A DNA stretch of 59,791 nucleotides, filler included, from Squatina squatina (Eukaryota): NCBI GenBank assembly GCA_031763465.1. It is 4 parts of 4 records of this genome, joined end to end, with 100 filler letters (N's around TTAATTAATTAA, not from the genome) between each part and the next. Parts side by side here need not be neighbours in the genome. Positions count along the whole stretch, not along the records: positions 27,858 to 46,582 come from JARFOE010000001.1; 3 more parts are not named here. The stretch is one strand, 5' to 3'. Shown one piece after another: positions 4,671 through 46,582 of this stretch. The notes below the pieces were generated by a model. The model worked only from the letters and a program-made list of their open reading frames with translations. It made no database searches and was not told the DNA's origin. Numbering within the stretch: position 1 is the stretch's first letter; the number at the start of each line of letters is the position of its first letter. The position numbers and the translations under genes are program-made.

Positions 4671-5182
4671 TGTTTTTGCCCATTTCATGGACAGAGGGCA
4701 GCATTCCAGAGCCACGTCACATTTCAAAAAGTGACGCGGACAGGAGAGGGCAGCTGATTGGTGAGTATTTAAACTGTTTAGCTGGTGGTGAAGGTTAATA
4801 GTTAATAACGTGTAGATGATCTTCAGTTTTCAGCTATAGTTTCTAAGGCCTCTTGAGTAGCGGGGAGTGCGAAGGGCCCTTAAGTAATTAATCATCAGTG
4901 GNNNNNNNNNNNNNNNNNNNNNNNNNNNNNNNNNNNNNNNNNNNNNNNNNNNNNNNNNNNNNNNNNNNNNNNNNNNNNNNNNNNNNNNNNNNNNNNNNNN
5001 NGACCTAAGCAGTGTCTGTGTGTGGGAGAAGAGCAGCTTTAAGCAATGAAGTGGGCTGTTAGGTAGTTGGAAGCAGTTCAGCCAACTGAGGTGAAATTCG
5101 GCGCTTAGCACTAGAAACGCAAAAATTGCGAATTGCGTGACCTTTATGTCCCCCTCGCAGCTTACTTTCCCCTTCGCCCTGC

Positions 5183-27813: not shown

Positions 27814-28740
27814 NNNNNNNNNNNNNNNNNNNNNNNNNNNNNNNNNNNNNNNNNNNNCATCAATTCCTTTTAACATCACACTTTCCACAGCTGCATTAAT
27901 TACATTTATACCAATAAAGTGGCTTGATGGCTGCTTGAGAAGTTTGAATGTGAAATATTCTGCCAAACTCAACCAAGGACATTCAATTGATGAAGCCTTC
28001 ACAAGAAGGTGCACATCAGCCAATCACCATCAAGCACAACAATACAAAGATCTCCTTCAAAGGAAAAGATACTTATTTTGTACATTTATCAAGAAGCCAG
28101 AAATGTCTCAGAAGATGCAAAATATATTTATCAGAGAATATTGGTGAGTTTGCCCAGATTTCTAAATAACTAGAATAAAAATAGACTCCACATATATTGT
28201 ACCAAAAAAATTAAATGCAGCAAACTGATTGCAAGACTCATGCTGCAGCCTTATGTTTAAGTGAGACGTGACTGTTCTCAGCGCAGTGGAGCAGTACAGG
28301 AGTTCATCTGTCACTATGTAAATACAGAATATTGCTCTCATCGTACATTTTACAGCAATGCGAACTGCACTTTTACAGGACAGTTTTTTTTGCTGTAACT
28401 AAATGAATGCTTTGGTAAACTGTATATGTACTTTAACATTATCCTGGCGGGTGGTCAAATGACTCGCGATTAGTGTTGAGGTTTTTCAGCTGCACTGATT
28501 ATAAAATCTGGATAGCTGTGCAGTTCAAGACTGATCCTAATGACAACCAAAGGGTGAGCCTCCCCCAGAATGCCAATCGATATACCGACCGCAAACTGTT
28601 AGGAATTGCAACTGCACTCCTCCCCAGTAGTCTGCTGTAGATTGATCCTGTATTTCCCTCCGTTCCCGCTTCCTCAAATATGACTGTCAATCAGCCAGAA
28701 AGAATGGCTCCATATCAGCACAAAATCACCAGAAAATAAT

Positions 28741-29384
28741 GGGGCAGAAATTCCGGTTCCGCCAGGTGCATACGAAGATCGAACTCATCCCCAGGAGAAG
28801 GGCCTGTGTGGGCGGAGAGTTGGGCGATATGCCCAGCAAAAGCCCTTCAATGTTACGCTGTTAAAAGCAGGAGTACAGGCCTGCTTACAGCAGCATAAGA
28901 GGTTTAAAAAACTTAAAAATAGAATTCAAACACTTATTTATTAATTAAAACCCCGGGCCAGTAAGGTACGCATTTTTACAAACTTTAAAATGTTTGAAAA
29001 TATTTTTGAAAAAAATAATTTTTTGTGTAAAATATTTAATTATATAGCATCTTAATTAATTTTAATATTTGAGGTGTTTTTAAAAAGCTTATTGTGAAGT
29101 GCTTGTGGGTTTTTTACTATCTCCATTCATACTTCTCTGTTGATCTCTGTATATTCAATGGAAGTATGAATGGGGAGACCCGTACCTTGATTGACTGGGG
29201 TCTCGCACGTGATCCTAGCAGCGTCTGCGAACCACATGCGCTGCTGGGATACCTGGGCCTCTCCGCTGGCGTTCGCACAGAGGCCCAGGAACGCCAGGCT
29301 GAGAACCTACCGGACCGCCAGGTAAAAATCTTTCCGGTCGGAGGCCTGCGCCCACGGGAAGGCTCCGACCGGAATTTCTGCCCC
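28741..29384. mobile_element. 644-bp non-autonomous DNA transposon (MITE) with perfect 17-bp TIRs
   Basis: GGGGCAGAAATTCCGGT ... ACCGGAATTTCTGCCCC; flanks AAT/ATT; GC-rich arms and an AT-rich core. Confidence 0.85.
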
Positions 29385-31289
29385 ATTTTATGTCCTTCAC
29401 GAGATTATTAGGATTCGGTTTTAAGGGAAGCTGGGTGCAAACTCTGACATGACGTCGCATGGGATTAATCTTCCAATCGGACTTCCCTGCACCATATGCT
29501 TCAGCACGTGCACAATTTCAATGAAAAAAAAAATCGGTGAGAGTATGAAACAGGAAATCCCGTTTTGTACTTGTGCCAACTTTACATCCCCAGGAATGCA
29601 AATCTATATCAGAAATTAGTTGAGCAGCTCTGAACCATTGCTACTCTGCTGATTCAACTTCTTTTTGATTGACATGTGTATGTGAAAATAGCTTTGATAT
29701 TTATGGTTGTGCTATTGGTTACGTTCAGGGACAACAAAATACACCAATCAGTAAGCTACCCAGGTACTTGGTTAGCTTAGACATTTTTAGGTGCTGCTCT
29801 GGAGCAGTGTTAGCTCTGTTTAATGCAGTTTGTTTTATTTCAGTGCTGGCAGCTGCTGTATTTGCTTTCAGAGCAGAGAACTTAATGGAGGCAACATCAC
29901 TTGCTGCAGCTGAAGTAAGGAGTTCTAACTTGATTTTGGAATGACGGAGGGACCATACTTTCTTGTGGGGGTAGGATCGTGGGCAGGGGGGGGTGGAGCA
30001 GCTGTTGCTTCTCCAGCACTGATTGCCAATCTCAGCCACGTCACTGTGTGGAAGCAATGGGAAGATGCCAGTTTCTTCCTCACAAAGAGAGAGGGAAAAT
30101 CAGTGAGAGNNNNNNNNNNGATGTCTCCTTCCAAAGGGGAGGAGGGTCACATTAAGACAGCTGTTGAGCACTTTCTAGCTCTGAGGGCAGCTGGCAATGG
30201 CCATTTTGCAGGTGGCACACAGCCTGAGGAACTAAAGAGGACTAGAGAGAAAATAAAGAGAATTACAAATATTTACAAAAACAACCAAAAACATAAATAC
30301 AGCAATGAATTTAGATTGATTGGTTCGTTGATGTTTTGTAATACTTGGTTCCAGATTTAAAATGTTTCTTATTTTATTTTAAATCTTCTTATTTTAAATT
30401 AGTGTCATTAAAACATTTAATTATTGACATGAAGAAGAGTGTTCAAAAATGAGGGATAATTGTCAAGGCCAAAGGCATCTGATTTTCATTCACTTTACAC
30501 AGATCTCTGGATACTCTATTTTACAAGAGGGAAAAAAAAATTGTTCAGAGCATATAGGGTAGATTTTCCTGGGTCTGGATTGCGTGAGTGCAGCAAATAT
30601 CGGAAAACCAGGTGGGTAGGAACGCATACCTGTAAAGGAACCCGCACAATCTTCCAATATTTCAATTAATCAGCCTGGTTTTTTTCACAGGCATGCATTC
30701 TGACCCGCCTAATGTTCCAATATATGCTGTGCCCAGGTGATCGTCTTTGTAGTTGTGATCTTCTCTAANNNNNNNNNNNNNNNNNNNNNNNNNNNNNNNN
30801 NNNNNNNNNNNNNNNNNNNNNNNNNNNNNNNNNNNNNNNNNNNNNNNNNNNNNNNNNNNNNNNNNNNNTGCGTTGGTAAGGAGCCAGAGGAGCTCCCAGC
30901 AGTCTGTAAAATGCAGACAAGAAAACTGCACAAGCCGCCTGCAGCCAAGCCTGTATCAACAGCTCCAAGTGGCAGCCCCACAGGAGATGTTGGCACTGTG
31001 GAGGTAATCATACCTCAGCCTACTGCAGATTCAAAGAGCGACCATGCTTCAAATGCTCACAGATAGGCCACACTAAAAGCCAGAGTGCAAGCCTTTAAAA
31101 GAAAAGGCACAGAATGCAGCTCATCGCCTAGAGGATGAAGACTTAGATGAGGAAACATCAAAAGCCCAATTAAGCCATGTCACAGATGGATCTGTGAACA
31201 AGATGTTTCGGGGTTTCGGGGCCTGGCGCCGATGAGAAATTCCATCAGAATGGAGATCGGCTAGGACAGGATTGCTCCACATTCTTGAG

Positions 31290-33325
31290 CCTCCTCGACA
31301 CACCTAATAGGGTCAAGGGCCAAATGCCTCTTTCAGCGTCTCGATGGTTTTGGCCGTAAATGGATGCCGTGCCAGGTCATGCGCTGTGCCAGCTCTTCTG
31401 GCGACATCCAGCCTGCTCCTCCGGCATCAGGTACATTCCTGGCCCTGGTCACCTTGCCAGCAAGGTCCTCCCCTTCACCAATCACCTAAAATGGATTCCT
31501 GAGCAGCAGCTCCCGGAGGATGTCTGCCACTCCTGACGGGGGACACTCTGGCTGGAGGTGACCATATACCAGATCCTGATCAGTTCCTGGTAAAAGACAG
31601 GTGGCTCTTGCAAGGAGGTATGGCCAAACCCCAGTTTTACAAACAGGAGCTGCATATTGTAATTGAGGCCGTGAAGCTGGCAGAAGAAATACGTCACCAG
31701 CGTATGTCATCTGGGAGGACCCTCAACATACAGGTATCACTGCAGGGTCTGAAGTCGAAAGGGCGCAGCCTGACCACCCTCCTTAAGCGGGAGTCTCAGA
31801 ATTACAGCAGAGACCCAATGCTTCCTTTTGTCCCAGAAGAAGTCAACAAGCTTCTTCTGTATCTTGGCAACAAAGTCAGGGGGAGGGATCAAAGTGAACA
31901 ACTGATACCACGGCATAGCGGCCACCAGTTGATTTATGACCAGCACTCGACCCCTGTACGAAGGCACTCGCAACAATCCTGTTCAATGCGCTAGGCCAGC
32001 GGTGACTTTGGCCTCCAGCTTTTCCCAGTTCGCTAGCCAGGCTTCCTCAGCAGAGCTAAGGTAGATTCCCAGGGAGAGGAGATGAGTGGTCATCCAGGCA
32101 AAAGGTCNNNNNNNNNNGGAGTCCATCCACCACTGACCCACCTGGAGTCCGAAACACTTCTCCCAGTTGATTCTTGCAGAGGACATGGCAGAGTAGACCT
32201 GCACTCACTCGCGCACCCTCTGCAAGTCAATGGGATCCATGACCATGAGGAGCACGTCATCGGCGTAAGCTGAGAGGACGTTCTCCATGCCTGGTCCTTG
32301 CAGACCCAGTCCCATCAAACTCCTCCACAAGAGGCACAGGAAAGGCTCTATGCAGATGGCATAAAACTGGCCGGACATGTGGCACCGCTGATGCATCCCT
32401 CTCCAGAAGTGAAGGGGCACCATCAAAGACCCGGTAATCTTAATCAGACACTACGTGGCGGCGTACAGAAGTCGGATCCAGGCGACAAAACGTGTCCCGA
32501 TCCTGAATGTGCACAGAGTCTTGAAAAGGCACTTGTGATCCACCCCGTCGAACAACTTCTCTTGATCCAGGGAAAGGAAGGTGACTGACAGACCAGCCCT
32601 CTGGGAACAGTGGACAAGGTCTTGGACCAGATGGATGTTGGCATGGTGGTCCGGCCCAGGATCGTATAGGACTGGTCGGGTAGATCATGTGGGCCAGCAC
32701 GGTGCCAAGGCGAGCAGACATTGCCCTGGCAAAGATCTTGTAGTCTGTGCCGAGGAGGGAGACCGGGCACCAGTTCTTAAATAGGCAGAGGTCGCCCCTC
32801 TTTGACAGCAGGATGATAACTGGCCTGCGGTAAGAGAGGGGCATCTCCACAGTCACCAGACATTCCCCCAGCACCCATGCATAGTCGCCCCCCAGGATGT
32901 CCCAGAATGTCTGGTGGAACTCAACAGTTGGTCCGTCCAGCCCCAGGGACTTGCCTCTCGAGAGCTGGCTGAGGACACCGGTCTGCTCCGCCCAGCTTCG
33001 CGGAGCAATTAGCTGTTCAGAGCCCTCTGGGCTGACCTTCGGCAGGTCCTCCCACCAAACCTCTGTGACCATCCTCGCTGGACGGATCTGGATAGAACAG
33101 AGCCCCGTAATAGGCCCGGCCTCGGCACTGATGGCCTCTGGATCAGAGACCAGGGATCCGTCATTGACCAGCAGCCCCAAGAGCCGCTTCTTCCAGTGAG
33201 TAGAAGGGGGAGCTGCAGTCCAAGTCCTGGGGGAACTGGATCCGCGACCTCACGTAAGCGCCTTGGGACCCGACGAGCTGCATGTCCTTCAACGTGCCCT
33301 CCTCTTCATTGAGGGCCGGGTCTTC
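31290..33325 (-). mobile_element. Tx1-type L1-clade retrotransposon ORF2 (degenerate)
   Basis: KSLGLDGPTVEFHQTFWDILG, KNWCPVSLLGTDYKIFAR, DQSYTILG, LSAYADDVLL and SYRGRVLVINQLV, spread over frameshifted ORFs. Confidence 0.88.
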
Positions 33326-34144
33326 NNNNNNNNNNNNNNNNNNNNNNNNNNNNNNNNNNNNNNNNNNNNNNNNNNNNNNNNNNNNNNNNNNNNNNNNNNN
33401 NNNNNNNNNNNNNNNNNNNNNNNNNAGTCTTTGCGGGTTCCTGGGAGACTGGCAGAGCCCTTGTGGAATTTCAGGGTCACTTTCTTTATCCATATTGCAT
33501 ATAAAGATCTTGAGTAGATTTTCAACTTGCCACCCAGTTGTAAAACTGGTTTTGTAGATTGGCTGACCATTATATAAAAACGAAAAATTGATCTTAATTT
33601 CTGTTGAAATAAATGCGTACATTATAACTTTTTCATTTGTGAATTCCTGTGTTTTATATTTGTAACGGTGACCACCAATGTTCTCAAATCATAACAGGGG
33701 CCTGCGCCGCTGACTTTTCAATAGGAAAAATGCACCAGTGCGATATTTTGAATGGACCGTGCGGCCCCCCCCAAATATTACAGGGGATGTTGGTGACCAC
33801 CTATGTAAACTTGCCATGCTTGAATCACAAACCCCCACCCCGGTAGAAGTGCTGTAATAGAAGTATGTAATTACAGTGCAATAAGTTTACATAGTCATTT
33901 TCTATTATAAATGTGGACATATAAACTTATAATAGAAATACATGGATAGAATGAATGACTGACATTAAAATAGGAACTGAATTACATCTGCGAGTCCAAG
34001 TCTTCTGCCTTCTAACCTGAAGACTACATTTGATCTTGACTCTTTATGTGCAGCATCATGGGAAGTCGATTAACATATAAATAATCTTACAACCTGTATC
34101 CTTATTTTAAGATCATGTTCTAATTTCTAACTCTTTAATTATAG

Positions 34145-34275
34145 ATAACTGCACTACATTGAACCCAGCATGCCTGAATGAGGATGATCGATACTGCCTT
34201 GAGGCTATTCGAATGATACACAAACAGATGGATGATGACGATGATGGGGATGTTGATGTAGAGGAGAGTCATGAG
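34145..34275 (+). CDS. STIM2: Stromal interaction molecule 2, EF-hand exon
   Basis: ttatag| ... |gtaaac; DNCTTLNPACLNEDDRYCLEAIRMIHKQMDDDDDGDVDVEESHE. Missed by the ORF track. Confidence 0.92.
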
Positions 34276-34577
34276 GTAAACCAAAATTATAAACATGGAA
34301 TACTCTAAAGCTATCATTGCTGAGTTTTTGTAACTTGTATGTTTCATATTCTACTTGTAAACTTTTTACTTCCTTTTGATAAAACATGCAGGGCACCCAA
34401 TTGGCATTTTTATAGCTGGTATGCCAATAGGTGTGATTTTAGCGCCCTAATAGAGCTGTCCCTTTAAGTCAGGGCATNNNNNNNNNNNNNNNNNNNNNNN
34501 NNNNNNNNNNNNNNNNNNNNNNNNNNNNNNNNNNNNNNNNNNNNNNNNNNNNNNNNNNNNNNNNNNNNNNNNNNNNN

Positions 34578-35795
34578 TTAAACTCACAGAATCTTTCGCT
34601 CTTTATACTCACAGAATCCCCCGCTTTGTATACTCACAGAATCTCCCACTCTTTATACTCACAGTATCCACCACTCCTTATACTCACAGAATCTCCCAAT
34701 CTTTATACTACAAAACTCCCACTGTTTATACTCATATAATCTCCCGCTCTTTACACTCAGAGAATCTCAAGCTATTTATACTCACGGAACCCACTGCTCT
34801 TTATGCTCACAGAGTTCCCGACTTTTTACACTCACAGAATTTACACTCACAGAATCGCCCGCTCTTTACACTCACAGAATCTCTCGCTCTTTACACTCAC
34901 CCAATCCTCTGCCCTTCACACTCACAGAATCTCCCGCTCTTTACACTCAAAGAATCCCCCGCTCTTTATACTGACAGAACCCCGCACTCTGTACACTCAC
35001 AGAATTTCCCGCTCTTCACACACATATAATCTCCCGCTCTTGACACTCCCAGAATCTCCAGCTATTTATACTCACAGAACCCATTGCTCTTTATGCTCAC
35101 AGAGTTCCCCACTTTTTACACTCACAGAATTTACACTCACAGAGTCGCCCGCTCTTTATACTCACAGAATCTCCCACACTTTATACTACAGAATCTACCG
35201 CTCTTTACCCCTCTTAACACTCACAGAAACTCCTGCTCTTTATCCTCACAGAATCTCCCGCTCTTTTTACTCATAGAATATCCCGCTCTTCGTACTCACA
35301 GTATCTCCTGCTCTCTTTACTACAGAATCTCCTGCTCTTTACCCTCACAGAATCTCCCACTCTTTACTCTACAAAATCTCCCGCTCTTTATAGTCACAGA
35401 ATCCCCTGCTCTTTATACTCATGGAGTCTCCTGCTCTTTACCCTCACAGAATCTCCCGCTCTTTATACTCATGGAGTCTCCCGCTCTTCATACTCGCAGA
35501 ATCTCCTGCTCTTTACACTCACAGAATCCCCCACTTTTTACACTCCCAGAATCTCAAGCTATTTATACTCACAGAACCCACTGCTCTTTATGCTCACAGA
35601 GTTACCTGCTTTTTACACTCACAGAATTTACACTCACAGAATCTCCCGCTCCTTATACTCACAGAATCTCCCGCTCTTTCCATTTATATAATCCTCCGCC
35701 CTTTACACTCACAGAATCCCCCGCTCTTCACACTCGCGGAATCTCCCGCTTTTTATACTCACAGAATCTTCCGCTCTTCACACTCACAGATTCTC
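34578..35795. repeat. 25-bp minisatellite (~48 units) with a higher-order cassette
   Basis: Unit ACTCACAGAATCTCCCGCTCTTTAT/AC; a variant block recurs at ~34765, ~35055 and ~35551. Confidence 0.93.
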
Positions 35796-37163
35796 CTGCT
35801 GGTTATGCCATTTTTCCAGGATTTCTGCCGCTCTTCCACCAAATTTATGGCGGAAGAGTGGGAGATACCCCTGCAGAAATACAACAACCGTATCTTTGAC
35901 TTACTACGAGCAATGCCAGGGAAAGTCACTAGTATGTCATTGTTTTTATAAAGTTTCATGTTTTCAGCAAAATGCACTTAAAGTGGTCACCAAAATAGTA
36001 TGTCAATTGTTGAGTTCTTTTCTGTTAAGACAAAGGCTACAAATTAAACTTAATGAAAATGTTCATTTCTCTATACTCCTTTTAAGAGAAGCGGTTTTGT
36101 AGTACTTGTTTTCAAATAGCACAACCATATCTACTTCCTGAAAAATGTTTGGATCTTATCTATGTTCAAGAGAACATGTTCAAGAGGTCCTGAAAACAAG
36201 AATTAGAAATTAGCTAGTATTATTCATCCAGGAATAATCTACAGACTATTAAAATAGTGCATGGTAGGAAGATGAAAATCACCTGTATGTACAGTGCCAG
36301 ACAGGAAAAAAAATAAACTGGGGAAAAATGAGAGAAAAGGAGTTGATTCCTCTTTCTGGTCTGGAATGGGTCCCCACGGGTTCTTTTACAACTGTAAACA
36401 GTGTGCCTTGAAATCACATTTTTCAACTCTATATATCTGAATAATATGTTGCCTAATTTAAATATGTTAACTAAACCCTGAAAGCAAGTTCTACAAAATG
36501 TTCTTATCACATCGTATCATTGGAAAAACAACATTGTTTCAAATAATTTAAGTAAACTGAAGGGAGGAAACTATTAAAATTAAAGTAGAAAGGGCTAAAA
36601 GAAAATCTCAAATGAACACTACTTAGATGAACATGTAGCAATTATTTAAGTGCATTCATAGCAGGCAGAATTTTAAAGAAATTCTGGCCCTCAGGGATGA
36701 GATTTTTTTAAAAAGATTGTATTATCAATCTGTGATCAATTTGACGGACTATGATATACAGCAAAATATAACCGTTAAGAAAAATAGCTTTAAGAAAATT
36801 AAGATTTTTTTCATTCTCAAGATATGGGCATCGCTAGCAAGGCCGGCATTTATTGCCCATCCCAAGTTGCCCTGAGAAGATGGTGATGGGCCACTTTCTT
36901 GATACAAGTGAGTGGCTCGATTCAGAGGTCAGTTAAGAGTCAACCCCGTTGGTGTGGGACTGGAATCACCTATAGGCCCAAGTGGATAAGGATGGCAGGT
37001 TTCCTTCCCTGTAAGCCATTAGTAGGGATACAGGAGAGAGACAAAAAGATTTGTACAGGTTCAGAATATTTCCGCATTGTTGATGCTAATTAATATATTG
37101 ATCAAACACCTTGTTTTTGTTGAGTTGAATTATATTGGATTTTTCATTGTCTTTTTCTTGCAG

Positions 37164-37275
37164 TATACAATTGGACAGTAGATGAAACGATGGACTGGTT
37201 AGTCCACTTTGTGGAATTGCCACAGTATGCAAAGATTTTCCAGGAAAACAACATTCGAGGAGTCGGCCTACCCAG
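37164..37275 (+). CDS. STIM2: STIM2 SAM-domain exon
   Basis: ttgcag| ... |gttagt; VYNWTVDETMDWLVHFVELPQYAKIFQENNIRGVGLPR. Confidence 0.93.
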
Positions 37276-38156
37276 GTTAGTTTTGCTGAAAGTTGATCAC
37301 TGTTGGGTTTTCTGTTCCTCTGAGTATAATTTGAACACCCGTAAAACTGGACATTTACTTAAAGGCTGACAGAGATGATATGAAGTTTTCCTACAAAAAG
37401 AACAGTGACTGCACTTGGAAGGTAATTCATTGGCTATGAAGTGTTTTGGGACATCTTCCAAGATATGAAAGGCACTATACATAAAGTTATCACTTCCCTA
37501 AGTTTTAACCTGATCTGAAATTTGAATTGTTTCTGAAAAGTAATAGATTTTACCAAACAATCCTTAACTGTTACTGCTGGGCAAGAATCTTCCAGAATCC
37601 AGAGTTAACCAACCATCTCTAGGCAGTCCGACGACATGAATGTGGATAATAACCTGCATATTGGAACACATCTCCTCTGATAGATGACATGATCTTTTCC
37701 AAGTTTTTAATGTTTATTTTTTGAAAGGCAGCTTTTATGGTCTGAAGTTTAGATTAAAAATGGAGACACAGCCTTCCTGTGTTTGATATTTACAGCGATT
37801 TAGGTGTGGTTTCCCCAATAATGTGGTATTAAAGGCACCATCCAGTGTAGTACTAAGCAGTATAGATCAGAGGGCCTCTGGTTTGATTTGTGGTCTATAC
37901 TGAGTTACCTGTTCCTAGCTGGGACAGTAGTGGGTGGGGGAGCTACAGTTGATCTCACCACCCTTGGGTCAGGATGGAAAAACTTAACCAGAGTTCTGGG
38001 GGATAATTTTAACCCCCTGGCGGGGGAGGAGGCAGGTGCAGGATTAAAAATGCAAAATTGGGAAACCCGACTCCAACTCACCTCCATCCTACCCACTTCC
38101 CGTCTGAAAATCCTCATTTCCTGGCTCCGAGTTATTATCGCGCCTCTGGTCCCTGA

Positions 38157-38672
<516 letters not shown>

Positions 38673-39281
38673 TGAGTTCGCAATGGGGATTCATTTGTCC
38701 TCCATCACATCTCCAGCCACTAGTCCTACCAATTAATTAGCAGTTTGCCAATCTAAAGCACCAAGTTAAAGTCTCGGTCTGGGTTGGCAGATAGCGACTA
38801 GGAATGGGAACTTAGGCTGTTTTTTTTTTCTGTTTCATAACTCAGGGGAGCTGAGGTCAATTGTAATGTTCCTATTGCTGCCATGGCTGACATTATTGAA
38901 TCTGGGAACATGCTGCTCTGACTCGGCTACTCATTGGTTAACCATCAGGGTAGCTTAAGGTTTATTATTGAGCACTCATTGAATCTAAGTCTTTGTGATA
39001 GATTCTGGCTGTTGCATCTGAGGGAGAAGGAAATCCAGGGTTATGCTGATGAGAGTGAGACGAGGAAAGATGGGAGGAGGCTCGAGTGGAGGATCAACGC
39101 CGGCGTAGACTGGCTGGACTAAATGGCCTGTTTCTGTGCTGTATATTCTCTGTAACATGCATCCTGAGAGAGGCTGAAAATGAACACTGGTTAGTTCAGT
39201 CAGGGTAATTGCTTCCCCATTAGGTGGCACTGTTGCTACACATCTAGTACTTTTGTGGCGCTTGGGCCCTCTTGATAGAAT

Positions 39282-39409
39282 GGGGTAGAATTTCTGCAGA
39301 CCTCCCTTTGTTGTTTTTGTGAAGGATTGGTGGAACAGCTGTTACACCATTTCTCTAGCGTTTCAACCAAAGTGAAAATTGGGAGAATCCCTGCAAAAAT
39401 TCAATCCCT
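39282..39409. mobile_element. Short degenerate MITE
   Basis: GGGGTAGAATTTCTGCAG ... CTGCAAAAATTCAATCCC imperfect TIRs. Confidence 0.45.
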
Positions 39410-39811
39410 CAGTGTTAAGTTCATGTTGGCATGTTGATAATAGATTGACCTTTAACGGCTTTGGACTGAGAGGAGTTTTCAATGCATTCAGAAACAGAAT
39501 GTTGTGAACCATTCAGCATTTTTAATGTGTGATGGATGTGTATGGTGAATCTTTGAAATTTTGATTCAACAAACTGTATAAGAATGGTGGAGTGCAACTG
39601 CTATGGCGTTTGGGAATTACATAAAATTTGTGTTAAATTACCTCTATAGTAGCTGAACAAGACAAACCTGGATCAATGGCCTTCTAATTTTCCTTCCTCC
39701 TCCACCCTCCTNNNNNNNNNNNNNNNNNNNNNNNNNNNNNNNNNNNNNNNNNNNNNNNNNNNNNNNNNNNNNNNNNNNNNNNNNNNNNNNNNNNNNNNNN
39801 NNNNNNNNNNN

Positions 39812-40178
39812 GCCTTGATCTCATCCTTGTTTTCAAATCTCTCCCTGGCCTCACCCCTCCCTATCTCTAATCTCCTTCAGACCTACAACCCTCCCGAAAT
39901 GTCTTCACTCCTTTAATTCTGCCCTTGTGAGCATCCCTGATTATAATCGCTCAACCATTTCAGCTGCCGAGGCCCTACGCTCTGGGATTCCCTGCCTAAT
40001 CCTCTCTTTCCTCCTTCATGACGCCCCTTAAAACCCCCCCTCTTTCCTGCCCTAATTTCTCCTTATGCAGCTAGGTCCCAATTTTTTTTTATTTTTTATT
40101 TTTTTAAGCTCAATACTCCTGTGAAGCATCTTGGGGCATTCGACTACGTTAAATGTGCTATATAAACTTAAGTTGTTA
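39812..40178 (+). mobile_element. L2-clade LINE 3' end
   Basis: LILVFKSLPGLTPPYL motif; tail GTGAAGCATCTTGGGGCATT...GCTATATAAACTTAAGTTG. Confidence 0.72.
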
Positions 40179-41318
40179 CTGTAATACTGTTAGAACCTTG
40201 AAATTGCTCAGCATTTCTTTTTAATACATTAGGTAGTACAGGGCATATAGATGCTAGTCTTGCTTTCTTGCAGCCAGAAAAATAAAGCTGCTTTTCAGAT
40301 TTCAGCACCCACATCGCAATTTACTACTAAATCTGCACCCTTTTCCTGGTAGCTGACTTGTCAAACCCACAAATGCTTGGGTCTACAAATTTGCTGAGAA
40401 AAGGGAGAGGTATTTAGTAGCATGAATGCGAGGAACCAGTCTCCCAGAATCCTAATTGAAACAGCAAGAAAAAATATATTGGTTGTATTTGCTAATCCCA
40501 GCTGCAATTTTTTTTTTTTTTAAAACTGGGTCTTCCCAAGTGTTGACCATAGGGAATTGGGCAACCTTACTTTGGTGTACTTTTCCAAATGGTTCATGCA
40601 TTTGGATCGGTACTACCTCAGCACATTTCTATTGCTAGGAAATTCAATTTACTTTTTTTCTATGCTTCTAATAACAGAATTATCAAGCAACTTTCATGCC
40701 CACAAAATGTGTGAATTCCAGTTGCTTTTGATAATATGCTGCCTATGGGCTGCAAAGTGAACAAATGTAGTACTTTTGCACATTTAATGCAGGATATTTT
40801 AAAATTTAATTATGAATGAATGAGCAGGGCTGTTTAAAGAGTAATGAGAAAGGAGATATAATTAAATTCTGAATAACTATTCAGATAGAAGGATAGGCAA
40901 AGGATTGCCTTTGGATCAACTATAGTTAACGGTGCAAAATAAACATATTTTTCTTCCAAGTTAGGGGCCTGTATTCAAGGTGTCCTTCTCCTTTATGAAG
41001 ACTGGAGACATGGCTGTCCATGCTTGGTTGCTTCCCTTGAGATATCCTTGAACACTGTGGGAAGGAGTCCTCCCCTTTCCATTAGATGATCATTTCCAAG
41101 CTTCGCACAAGTATAAGGAGTGTTCAAACATTCTTGTTAACTAAGCACTGTGACTCATAGCCCCTCTCTCTATTATTTCAAGTGCCTCATCTTGTAGTGC
41201 ATTTATCCACTAAGCCATTGGGAACCTTGCATTAAAAAAAAATGCTTTAAGTTGGAAATAATAAATTGTTTTCATCAGGCAATTTATAATTTTTGTTTCC
41301 TTTGCATCTATATTGCAG

Positions 41319-41557
41319 ACAAGCATTATCTGAGGTGACAGCAGCCTTGCGTGAACGGCTACACCGCTGGCAGCAGATAGAGATAATTTGTGGTTTTCCA
41401 ATCGTGCACAATGCAGGGATGCCGAGCCTAACCTCCATTCTGTATTCTGAGCACAGTTGGGTGGTCATGCCACGTGTGTCTGTTCCACCATATCCAATCG
41501 CTGGTGGAGTCGATGACTTGGATGAAGACACGCCACCAATCATTCCACAATTTCACC
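41319..41557 (+). CDS. STIM2: STIM2 exon: end of SOAR/CAD and inhibitory acidic domain
   Basis: ttgcag| ... |gtaagt; QALSEVTAALRERLHRWQQIEIICGF...HSWVVMPRVSVPPYPIAGGVDDLDEDTPPI. The tail is STIM2-diagnostic. Confidence 0.95.
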
Positions 41558-41861
41558 GTAAGTTACAAATCCCATCTCCTGACGAGGGAAAACAAGCAAT
41601 TGAGACCTTGACATTTTAATTCTGAACATTTGAGCTTCACATTCAGCTAAGGAAGAGGATAGGGCCAGACCGAAGCTATTAGTTTCCACTCTGCTACTCC
41701 CAGACAATTCTTAGCCAGTTGAACACCTGACATTTGCAGGACCATTTTACATTTCAGAATGNNNNNNNNNNNNNNNNNNNNNNNNNNNNNNNNNNNNNNN
41801 NNNNNNNNNNNNNNNNNNNNNNNNNNNNNNNNNNNNNNNNNNNNNNNNNNNNNNNNNNNNN

Positions 41862-42617
41862 CCACCACTGCAAAAGCTGATGTGTTGCCTCGGCCTGTGC
41901 CGCCATGGATGATGCCACCTCGTCCATGAGAGCTCTCATGGCTGCTGGATCATGATGCTTGATATGCGACTGGAGGAGGGAATGCAAGCTCTCCAACACA
42001 AGTCGTACAGTCTGCATGATGCGGGAGGCGGACTCCTCCGCCTTCTTCAGCACCTCGGAGAAGATCTCTGGCAGTCTTGCTATCGACGCCATCGTCTGCT
42101 CATGCATGGCCATGACCGTTTGTGGTACATTGACCTTGCCGAGGTCCTCATCCGAACCGTCGCCAGCAGTGCCGAGTGGCCAAGTGACCCTACGGCCACT
42201 TGCCACACCAGCATCCCTCGGCCTTTCTCCATCCTGCACCCGGCTGGGACCCAGTACAGAACCCTGTGCAACCCAAGTTTGATCACTACCCTGCACTACA
42301 CGTGAAGTGAGCATCTCTGAGCTGGCACGTGAGGCAGCAGTATGATGTGACGTACTGCTTGAGTCACTGAGCACTCCTGTCCAGCCCCCCTCTTCCCCAT
42401 TCTCCTCAACCTCCCCACCCTCCCCAACCTTCCCCAACCTCTCCTCCAGCAAGCTGGTGCCGTGGCCCCAAGTGCTCCTCCTCCTCCCACCACTCCTCCT
42501 CAGTAGACTCAGCCTCTCCAAGCAATTTCTCCATTGGAAGATCAGGAGGCGGGGAGGCTTTATTGTCCTGCCTGGCCACTTGTGATGGTTCCAGCACTGA
42601 CACAGAGGAGGCAATGT
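41862..42617 (-). CDS. Myb/SANT-like (Harbinger-type) gene, exon 3 (runs into gap)
   Basis: Acceptor ttttgtctttcag| at 42618; frame of ORF 41754-42647 is open to the gap; acidic/low-complexity region followed by a helical C-terminal region. Confidence 0.6.
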
Positions 42618-42767
42618 CTGAAAGACAAAATGGAAGAAAAGGCACATAATGCTGGTGCCATGCCCGGCACGTTTAAAAGCTCAAAACTACATTGTCCCAC
42701 AGCTAAGGCATTGATGGAAGACAACAAGGAGGAAGAGTGATGTTGAAGTCAGTGGAGCGTCACTCAC

Positions 42768-42932
42768 CATCATCATCATCATCATCGGGGGGAAGGACGA
42801 CAGGGTCACTGGCTCGCCCATCTCTGCCCCAATAATCCTGGCTACTTCCTCTTCCAGCTGATTCATCTCTGGCAGCTCCAGTATGTCACCATCAGGACGG
42901 CTCCTAAATGCCCTGATTGTCACCAGTTTAGC
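42768..42932 (-). CDS. Myb/SANT-like (Harbinger-type) gene, exon 2
   Basis: ctccttgtttctgcag|AKLVTIRAFRSRPDGDILELPEMNQLEEEVARIIG...|gtgagt; resembles the RTGGG....L..LEE.V..I.G motif that follows the trihelix. Confidence 0.65.
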
Positions 42933-43139
42933 CTGCAGAAACAAGGAGAAGTGCATGATGGCCAACCCTTTTCTTTCAACTTGTCATTTGATGGAATTGG
43001 CAAAAAGCGTGCCATGCCCATTGTGCACGATTATACAGAGTTCCAGTGTAAACAGCTCAGCAACTCTCTCAAGATTATTGCAATGTACAAAGGAGAGAGT
43101 TCACGATGGGGCGGCCATTGTTACAAGGGAGACACTCAC

Positions 43140-43385
43140 CTTCACAACTCGCATGACATCATTAAATTTTTTATGGTATTGATTGCCGTCCCTTGGAGTT
43201 ACATCCGTGGAAGCCACTTCCCTCGCCACGTCCCTCCAGGCTCGCCTTATCATCTTGGCTGTGCCCCTTCTTCCTGCAACAGGGAACAAGGTTCCAATCC
43301 TTCTGTCAACTGCAGCATTGAGTGCCTCAAGGTTTGCCTCCAAGAAACGGGAGGCCCTCACTCTTCCGGCCTGCGCTTCTGACAT
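43140..43385 (-). CDS. Myb/SANT-like (trihelix, NAIF1/Harbinger-type) DNA-binding domain, exon 1
   Basis: MSEAQAGRVRASRFLEANLEALNAAVDRRIGTLF...AWRDVAREVASTDVTPRDGNQYHKKFNDVMRVVK|gtgagt; pattern R..RF...LE.L...V...LF, W..VA..V, R...Q..KKF.D. Confidence 0.78.
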
Positions 43386-44337
43386 CTCGCCTGTACTTAA
43401 CAGCAGCCAATGTTCTGATACAAATCACTGACACCACCTCCAAGACTGACCTGAGCAGTGGTTGTCTGTGGGAAAGGCCCCCCTTTAAGTGCTGAGGAGG
43501 CCTGAGTGCTGATTGGTACCAGTTAGGCATTTACTGCAATTGGCCTGCAGAAATAAACTAAGATAATCAGCGCTAAGTAGGGGTCCTTTAGCGCTGAGAT
43601 TAGCACATTTTTTTAAGCTGTCAGAATTCTTTTTTCTATGTTTCAAATTGCAGGCCTTAAAGGGAGAGTTCCGAAACCGGAACTTTGCACTCAACAATTC
43701 GACCATTAGTGCCAGTAACTCAGTGAAGTTGAATTGGGTGCCCTTTGTCTTGCTATTAGATAGGTAATCAACACACTTTGCTCAAATGTATTCCCAGGGA
43801 GAAGCCGTTCAAACTAATGGTATTAGGAGTGCACGAGCAAATGGAGTAAACGATCTAACTCCAGAAATGATAGCCTTTGTGTATTTTCTTAATTAATGTA
43901 TCTCTGTAAAAGATACCCAGAGCCATTGCACACAAGGAAGTAAGATTTAAAAAAAACACTAGCTGTCATGTTTGTAAAGACAAAATTCTGAAATAGCCCC
44001 AATAAATTATGACAGAATTTCCAGCCATTATGCAATGTTGGAATCAGAGAAAGACACTGTGAAAGAAAAAGATTTACTCACATAGAGGAGTCCTCCATTA
44101 GTCTCACAAATTCTTTGCTGCAACATAGAATGTGAGAAAGATAGCCAATGTCGGGTGAACAAGGATTTGTTAAGTAGAGGTAGAAGCAAAATTTACTGCT
44201 TTAAGATGGAGAATTTGGGGATGACAAATAGTTCATTTATAAACTAAATTATTCTTACTTTATCACACTGACTTAAATATTTAATCATACATTCAAGAAT
44301 ACCAATACAAATTTGAAAGCCATATCTGAAACATACT

Positions 44338-45064
44338 GGCCCAGAATTTGTGGTCAGTGGCAAATGAATAGCGCTCACCGTTCATTAAACTTACAGCTGC
44401 CCACAGACTTTTTGTCAGCTTTTGAATGGCAATTTACGGTCATTGGAAGTCCGATACAGTGCAGGGGATCTGGGACCTGTATGGACAGGGAAAGCAACAG
44501 CGTATCACTTCAACCAATCAGATTGAGGCACGCAGTCTAAACCACGAAGTGTAAGTTAGAATATTTAATTCAATGTAAAATCAGGTACAGAGAGCAAAAT
44601 AAGAGAGGGAAAGATAGGATTAGAGAAAAGGATAATAGGGACAGAAAGAGAAAGTTAAAAAAATAAATAATTTTTAAACACCAACGATTATTAAAATCTG
44701 CAGGAATGAAACTCCACAGTTGTAAAAGTAAATTTTCAGGGCCAGAGAGGTTATTTGATAGTAATTAAGACTCATCACACCATTAAAAATTCACTTACAT
44801 TTGAATGGACAAACCCTAACTTTTTCTGGCTAGTTTAGTGGGTGTCGAGGGGGGGGGAAGTACAGCAACTTTGTATATTTAATGCCGAATATCTCAGTGA
44901 GTTACTGGTGTGGTGAAGCTTGTAGGGAAGCAGGGCAACTTGGACAGCAACTTCTGGGTTTCCGCATTTAACTGCGCATGTGCGGATGCAAGAAATTGTT
45001 GTCCAATTTACTCCACAATGTTGAGCGCTGTTAGCCTCACTGTTATTAATGTAAAATCTGGGCC
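44338..45064. mobile_element. ~727-bp MITE with TIRs
   Basis: GGCCCAGAATTT ... AAAATCTGGGCC; flanks ACT/ATT. Confidence 0.65.
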
Positions 45065-45595
45065 ATTGCTTTTTGTTCAATAAATTATCATTTTCATGTA
45101 CTTTACTATGCCATGAATTTCTTGAAGCTTTTAAAGTAAGATGTTTGAGAACTTGGGGAGATGGCAGGAAACACAGAGAAAAATGTATTGATAAATTTTT
45201 AAGAAATGAACACAGTAATTTCATTAAAATTTTCATTGCCTGCTAATGAAATTATTACTGTGTGGGTAGAATCTGTGCTCTTTGAGTCATAAGTTCATAT
45301 GGAAGAGATACTGAAATTAAGAATGTTTACAAGGTAAGTTGAAAGTAGAAAGTTGGTGTGGCTGGGAGCTTAGCTGCTTTATGCATTTAAATGTTAATGA
45401 TNNNNNNNNNNNNNNNNNNNNNNNNNNNNNNNNNNNNNNNNNNNNNNNNNNNNNNNNNNNNNNNNNNNNNNNNNNNNNNNNNNNNNNNNNNNNNNNNNNN
45501 NCTTTCTGGTGAATGATATTTGCTTAGTGGTATTTTAGATTTAAAAAGTAAATCCCTGTTTCTAAATGTTTGTGTGTGTGTGTTTTTTTTTTCAG

Positions 45596-45797
45596 CAGTA
45601 GCTCATAGTAAACTCACTTACAACTTACCAAAAAGCAGTAGCCAGGGTCGCTGTCGGCGGCCCAATGTGATCCCTTCTGGAGTTTCACCTTCCTTGCAAT
45701 CCTCCACTTCTGACATCTTTGTAATGAACAGCTGTTCAACCCTTCATCGCGGTGAGGAGGAGGAAGATGCCATATTCTTCACAGCGGACAAGAATTG
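45596..45797 (+). CDS. STIM2: STIM2 C-terminal exon
   Basis: tttcag|cag (NAGNAG) ... |gtaact; ...LPKSSSQGRCRR...DIFVMNSCSTLHRGEEEEDAIFFTADKNW, matching human DILSVSSCPALYRNEEEEEAIYFSAEKQW. Confidence 0.9.
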
Positions 45798-46504
45798 GTA
45801 ACTAGATTGTTGTGTGTTATGGACTGAATTGAAGCAAATTAAATTGTATTTTTTCCTGCCGCAGCTTGTTCAGCATTCTCACAGCCACGAGAGCACTGTG
45901 GAAATTGAATGATACTAAATTACTTTACCTTTAGTTAGTTATAAACCCCAGAAACCTGAACCATGCAAGCTTACTGCCAAAACAATGTGCAAAATGGATT
46001 AAAAATAAACTTAGGTTCTGCAAATTTCTTAGTGGGACAATTCATCTGAATTAGGGTAAAATTTGGATTTTCAACAAATTTTTCCAATTCACCTTGGTGT
46101 GGATTTCAAAATCTCTTGTGGAGTTTATAGTATTGATTGCAGGTCAGGCTGGAAAATTTACATGTCACAAAGCCCAGGAGTTGAATCCACATCAACAGAT
46201 TTATAAAGGAAGAGGCTGGAGCTACCCCAGTTAACTAAACTTAGTTCTAAATATCAGTCTAGTTACGCACATGTCCATAATTAACCTGCAGCAGATATGA
46301 ATTAATAATCCAGATATAGCAGTAGTAGAAATGTCTCAATGAGAGTAACTCCTCTGATGAGTAAATCACCACCTTTTAATCACTTATTTCAATTAAGCAA
46401 ACATTTGGGGATAAACTGGAGTCTTTTGCAAAAGCATTTCAATTAAGAAATGTCTGTAACTGCAGGCAGCCAACAGCTGGCTTCTGGAGCTCTCCTGTTG
46501 TACA

Positions 46505-46582
46505 TAGTAAATGTAACCCCACTATTCCAGAAAGGCGGGAGAGGGAAAACAGGGAACTATAGGCCAGTTAGCCTGACATCAG
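46505..46582 (+). mobile_element. CR1 LINE RT fragment
   Basis: VNVTPLFQKGGRGKTGNYRPVSLTS. Confidence 0.8.

Follow-up and report, generated by a model that had tools for sequence, protein, structure and literature searches.

What is a stop-free spliced reading frame with a Myb-like domain doing antisense to STIM2 in Squatina squatina? The window under study (the whole stretch of DNA analysed, 59,791 nucleotides in four joined parts of assembly GCA_031763465.1) contains this three-exon frame, and the transposable element that carries it, in the part spanning positions 27858-46582. The preliminary description had left the choice between a fairly young autonomous Harbinger and a host gene being domesticated, with the caution that paired compensating frameshifts might mark a decaying copy. 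The evidence below leads us to consider it very probable that the window copy, antisense to STIM2 within one of its introns, is the left part of an abundant PIF/Harbinger element. On this reading it is likely a dead copy under neutral decay, whose spliced frame has no stops because a 7-bp deletion and a 16-bp insertion cancel each other, likely by chance.

A three-exon Myb-like frame within one STIM2 intron

The host intron is delimited by two plus-strand exons. The upstream exon (41308-41556) encodes the end of the SOAR domain (PF16533, E 1e-7), and all 120 listed matches to it are STIM-family proteins, the best showing 95-97% identity to shark STIM2. The next exon (45598-45798) closes the intron, with shark STIM2 resuming there at residue 498/499 in tblastn. 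Since the two encode consecutive residues of shark STIM2, the element lies antisense within a single STIM2 intron, as had been proposed. An assembly gap of 100 N (41762-41861) cuts the element within exon 3, where a full element would continue for another 2.6 kb. STIM2 introns in the window hold other features as well: on the minus strand at 30869-33325, in an earlier intron, a broken reverse-transcriptase-like reading with a YADD motif, which we take to resemble a Tx1/L1-type non-LTR retrotransposon, and at about 34578-36000 a long degenerate tandem repeat array.

To place the window copy within its family, it was aligned with 19 sibling copies, those returned as loci out of 39 other matching contigs. 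All features of the element lie on the minus strand. Sibling alignments start at the left terminal inverted repeat (43726-43743, about 17-18 bp), so that the element end falls at 43743, one base from the TIR-like end reported earlier at 43732-43744. The subterminal arm and 5' leader of the Myb-like gene (43386-43725) also align with the siblings, and 23 of the 359 sites between 43744 and 43386 differ from the sibling majority. The three exons (43385-43140, 42932-42768 and 42617-41862) are bounded by GTGAGT donors and pyrimidine-rich CAG acceptors and splice into 389 codons (82+55+252) with zero stops; the exon coordinates, splice sites and stop-free frame first described were thus all reproduced.

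Exon 1 is free of indels and matches Pfam Myb_DNA-bind_5 (PF13873) with E 5e-5 and 23.5 bits, above the cut-off of 21.7, which bears out the suggested Myb/SANT trihelix N-terminus. Intron 1 (42933-43139) is phase 0 and common to the family, its donor GT being present in 16/19 siblings and its acceptor AG in 19/19. Exon 2 (42768-42932) carries the 7-bp deletion, which is absent from the family majority. Intron 2 (42618-42767) has conserved splice sites (donor GT in 16/17 and acceptor AG in 16/16 covering siblings), and it is here that the earlier statement that all introns are phase 0 holds only in part: it is correct for the damaged, frameshifted window copy, but in the family, where the majority exon 2 measures 172 nt, intron 2 is phase 1. 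Exon 3 (41862-42617), truncated by the gap, comprises an acidic linker followed by a helical region; from about 42428 down it matches Myb-like proteins of sawshark and sevengill shark (best E 1e-19), with one weak alignment running on to 42494. Pfam matches of exon 3 to PI_PP_C, Phasin_2 and RHA1_ro05818_N were weak, below their own cut-offs, and were set aside. The exon structure as such is real and recurs in the siblings.

The repeat family is a PIF/Harbinger transposon

One sibling, L021, is a full-length element of 4,499 bp flanked by ATA on both sides. Its inverted ends match at 14/18 positions, and it is the one sibling with both ends read, hence the one in which the 3-bp target duplication ATA/ATA is seen; the window copy shows the left end only. 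On the opposite strand, convergent with the Myb-like gene, the far half of L021 holds a DDE_Tnp_4 transposase gene that is broken; this half is itself multi-copy, with 39 other contigs at 77-87% among the scored matches. Two further siblings, L026 and L027, retain the full DDE_Tnp_4 domain at E 1e-26, and L026 has a 360-aa stop-free transposase stretch. The inverted ends and convergent DDE_Tnp_4 transposase of L021, along with the ATA duplication seen in this one sibling, identify the repeat family as PIF/Harbinger. Together with the PF13873 match, the inverted ends and DDE_Tnp_4 domains of the siblings uphold the initial assignment of the frame to the Myb-like second gene of such elements. 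The transposase sequence P0121 gave no meaningful PDB match. In the domain search of the genome with DDE_Tnp_4 (32,675 candidates, 150 scored), a 1,216-aa "open frame" around one match was rejected, as it consists mostly of a run of N.

The alignment of the window copy with L021 covers the first 1,842 bases of the latter, and the 3' half of L021, on the transposase side, has no match anywhere in the window. The remainder of the window copy (the rest of exon 3, the transposase and the second end) is therefore either hidden in the 41762-41861 gap or deleted. A genome search with each edge of the gap found no contigs extending the window copy past either one, and four low-coverage DNA runs over 41200-44600 listed no piece bridging the gap. 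In these runs the depth over the element is far above that of its flanks, which cannot be read as a number of copies.

A young, still autonomous Harbinger with an intact transposase in the 41762-41861 gap would account for the intact left end and for the position of the gap, which sits where a full element would continue, and the stop-free transposase stretch of L026 lends it some further plausibility. We nevertheless regard this possibility as highly improbable, since even the full-length sibling L021 has a broken transposase and since the age and damage of the window copy, described below, speak against it.

Three observations concern other Harbinger sequences. A second, more distant Harbinger-like Myb fragment (L021:6348-6994, 66%) lies head to head with L021, about 70 bp from its left end. 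The right arm of L021 (L021:1813-2073) contains an 81-bp unit about three times at 96-97%, with apparently fewer units in other copies. On another contig, a DDE_Tnp_4 sequence of a different Harbinger family (L057:1240-2577, G000:C1) is open over about 400 codons up to a gap.

Abundance of the family in the genome

Searching the genome with 41862-43760 gave 13,936 candidates, of which 40 were scored and all match: the window itself plus 39 further contigs with 76-89% identity. With a 150-base piece there were 2,384 candidates, and the 39 scored matches outside the window lay at 89-93%. A 20-mer at the junction of intron 1 and exon 2 has 209 exact matches in the genome, and its reversed control has 0. 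As the same 20-mer is present in 7/19 aligned siblings, these matches suggest a family of several hundred copies, roughly 570, a rough figure given that the siblings are the closest copies and the assembly is fragmented. The copies are dispersed, the window copy and 10 siblings having differing flanks at the left end. With 209 exact matches to its 20-mer, the sequence departs from the single-copy state of domesticated genes. Short Harbinger-related fragments (75-87%) also occur in other parts of the window, at 22989-23084 and 5002-5058.

Cancelling frameshifts and the origin of the open frame

The sibling majority is open across 390 codons, the exon lengths being 246, 172 and 753 nt. Relative to this majority, the window copy carries indels of -7, +16, -12 and -1 bp. 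The 7-bp deletion in exon 2 lies at about 42804, in columns where 16-18 of the 18 covering siblings have bases, and turns the acidic DDDDD tail of the exon into MMMMMM; a distinct loss of 7 bp occurs in L020, at about 42807. The 16-bp insertion in exon 3 (42424-42439) is private to the window copy, being absent in 9/9 covering siblings, and it cancels the exon 2 frameshift, so that about 77 codons are read in a frame other than that of the family. The third indel is an in-frame deletion near 42019 (site 42014-42020) of 12 bases that are present in 7/7 covering siblings. The open frame of the window copy thus departs from the family frame between about 42803 and 42424, and again in its last 11 nt, while exon 1 and 43 codons of exon 2 are still in the family frame. 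The matches of exon 3 to distant shark proteins lie mostly from about 42428 onward, the point at which the family frame resumes. The -7 and +16 indels and the conversion of DDDDD into MMMMMM vindicate the earlier caution about paired compensating frameshifts in a decaying copy.

The departure in the last 11 nt results from a 1-bp deletion at about 41873 (41862-41874), a third frameshift at a base present in 5/5 covering siblings. Lying 11 nt from the gap, it may be a contig-end error. If the loss is real, the sibling sequence beyond it reaches a stop within 7-125 codons in five of six cases, the sixth having 19 codons available, whereas the family frame of L054 offers 224 open codons.

This single-base loss, and an assembly as fragmented as this one (1.15 million contigs), raise the question of whether the open frame or some of the indels could stem from the chimeric joining of repeat copies. 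The divergence is even along the copy, at 5-9% per segment, no near-identical sibling segment was found among the scored matches, and both compensating indels lie several hundred bases from the gap; an assembly artefact is therefore extremely improbable.

How the frame can remain open across the shifted segment follows from the family itself. The shifted frame contains 0 stops in 71 majority codons and is stop-free in 8 of the 11 siblings with at least 50 codons scored, so the openness of the window copy needs no selection. Some observations speak against a chance origin: the window copy has no nonsense codon in the family frame, an outcome with a chance of about 7%, it keeps exon 1 and the 43 codons of exon 2 in that frame, and it has no stop in its spliced frame, whereas each of the 19 siblings has at least one stop in its own. 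In a simulation with the substitution rates of the window copy and the indels of the siblings, a stop-free frame arose in about 0.36% of 20,000 trials, a low chance per copy. Multiplied by about 570 copies, this gives roughly two stop-free copies expected in the family, provided that all of these cover the region from end to end; many of the assembled fragments fall short of that. Such a lucky copy is what a search for open frames would select.

Divergence, selection and the case for domestication

About 7% of the exon sites of the window copy depart from the family majority, its exons and introns being alike in divergence (5-9%), and CpG sites are changed at 18% compared with 6% elsewhere. 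Its closest sibling among the 19 is 89.4% identical, and none of 188 sibling pairs exceeds 91.1%, so no recent burst is seen in the sibling sample. Whereas an active autonomous element would have both genes intact and near-identical copies, we observe three frameshifts and a closest sibling at 89.4%. The suggestion of a fairly young autonomous element does not agree with these values.

Compared with the leave-one-out majority, the window copy has accumulated 21.5 synonymous and 60.5 non-synonymous changes, giving a pN/pS of 1.02 and a p value of 0.53 for purifying selection, where domesticated Myb genes are under such selection; this ratio averages the whole history of the copy, and selection begun recently would be missed by it. 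The pN/pS of the siblings ranges from 0.40 to 1.24, and four of them (L004, L008, L015 and L017) are significantly below 1. These four are among the siblings most distant from the window copy, and their low ratios probably reflect time spent in active sub-lineages. Within the Myb domain, codon 70 is Cys in 18/19 siblings and Tyr in none, and Cys70 is also found in distant shark and ray relatives; the window copy has Tyr. It has also lost three further sibling-fixed residues (S15L, A18N and L77V).

These results bear on a domestication in progress, in which the host would have begun to use the antisense Myb/SANT gene and selection would have kept the frame while tolerating the frameshifted linker. 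Several features are in line with such a scenario: the window copy is the only stop-free one among the 20 aligned copies, with the low simulated chance given above, exon 1 is without indels, and the frameshifted part is a poorly conserved linker. Harbinger Myb genes have moreover been domesticated repeatedly, as recounted in PMC9392472, and a related single-copy candidate exists in the same genome (see below). Against it stand the pN/pS of 1.02, the loss of the conserved Cys along with S15L, A18N and L77V, the retention of an inverted end, the hundreds of relatives, and the third frameshift near the gap, which would end the frame within 7-125 codons in most of the siblings' sequence. The preliminary suggestion of a host gene being domesticated sits poorly with this copy number and this ratio. 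Domestication in progress is thus quite improbable, and we think it just as doubtful that the locus captures a Harbinger Myb gene at the onset of domestication, with recent selection acting through the compensating frameshifts to yield a Myb domain joined to a new 77-residue linker in another frame. If true, the locus would offer an uncommon view of a gene being born with a segment that a frameshift produced. For the window copy, youth and domestication are both unlikely; it is probably an ordinary fossil of its family and not a new host gene.

Distant Myb-like relatives and a likely domesticated locus

Word-indexed protein searches with exon 1 and part of exon 2 gave no matches. A full HMMER search with exon 1 retrieved 12 relatives, and the 10 that were looked up come from sawshark, sevengill shark, rays and sturgeons. 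The annotated Myb-like proteins of sawshark, sevengill shark and rays (P0122-P0132) share 34-51% identity with the window copy in the Myb domain and resemble it in the C-terminal helical region, and several carry an acidic DDD run after the Myb-adjacent helix; they are distant relatives and not members of the family in the window. Among the ray proteins, the cluster P0132 (Hypanus LOC132391429) shows 96-98.5% identity across four species of ray and behaves like a conserved host gene.

When P0132 was compared with the genome, one match stood out among 102 scored: L068, with 67% identity over 181 residues and no stop, the next best match having E 4e-26 and four stops. Its stop-free exon (L068:4-549, G000:C634264, minus strand) starts at a phase-1 acceptor. 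L068 has no close DNA relative, only partial ones at 66-79% among 39 others scored. These features make L068 a likely case of a Harbinger Myb-like gene that was domesticated by the host and is common to sharks and rays. L068 looks as a domesticated gene should, and the window copy does not.

Comparison with known systems

Vertebrate PIF/Harbinger elements, as outlined in PMC9179366, combine a DDE_Tnp_4 transposase with a Myb/SANT-like partner, usually have inverted ends of 25-50 bp and generate a 3-bp target duplication. In established Harbingers the inverted repeats are bound by the Myb-like protein, which recruits the transposase so that the element can be excised and inserted (PMC9179366, PMC9392472). 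By analogy with these systems, the ancestral Myb-like protein of the family would have attached to the inverted repeats and delivered the transposase to the nucleus, allowing insertion by cut and paste. The window copy would have inserted during a past expansion, ceased to contribute after insertion, and decayed since, and its antisense orientation may have spared STIM2 splicing, allowing it to persist.

The presence of Harbinger elements in sharks is already known. PMC9179366 reports that none was found in elephant shark. PIF-Harbinger appears in the repeat annotations of whale shark (PMC8455134) and grey reef shark (PMC12498223), and PMC12498223 places Harbinger among the commonest DNA transposons of grey reef shark. 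The present family belongs to the same superfamily, the comparison with the elements of PMC8455134 and PMC12498223 being made at the level of the superfamily name only. A literature search found no description of this Harbinger family or of an elasmobranch-specific domestication, a point on which the repeat tables of PMC8455134 and PMC12498223 may bear.

Being a single fossil copy from a known superfamily, one whose occurrence in sharks is already on record, the window copy matters little in itself. It does caution that, in a repeat, a long spliced frame free of stops can stem from cancelling frameshifts and from being the luckiest of hundreds of copies. The description of the family, with its 4.5-kb element, three-exon Myb gene and convergent transposase, adds a small datum on the diversity of Harbingers in cartilaginous fish.

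Set against the vertebrate elements of PMC9179366, the family likewise has two genes, inverted ends and many dispersed copies, with an ATA duplication seen in one sibling, but its matching ends are short, at about 17-18 bp; unlike such elements, the window copy is damaged and shows no transposase half. The domesticated genes NAIF1 and MSANTD1-4 each exist in one copy, keep their synteny across vertebrates and evolve under purifying selection (PMC9392472). The window sequence shares with these genes the Myb/SANT class PF13873, whereas it is multi-copy and has a pN/pS of about 1.
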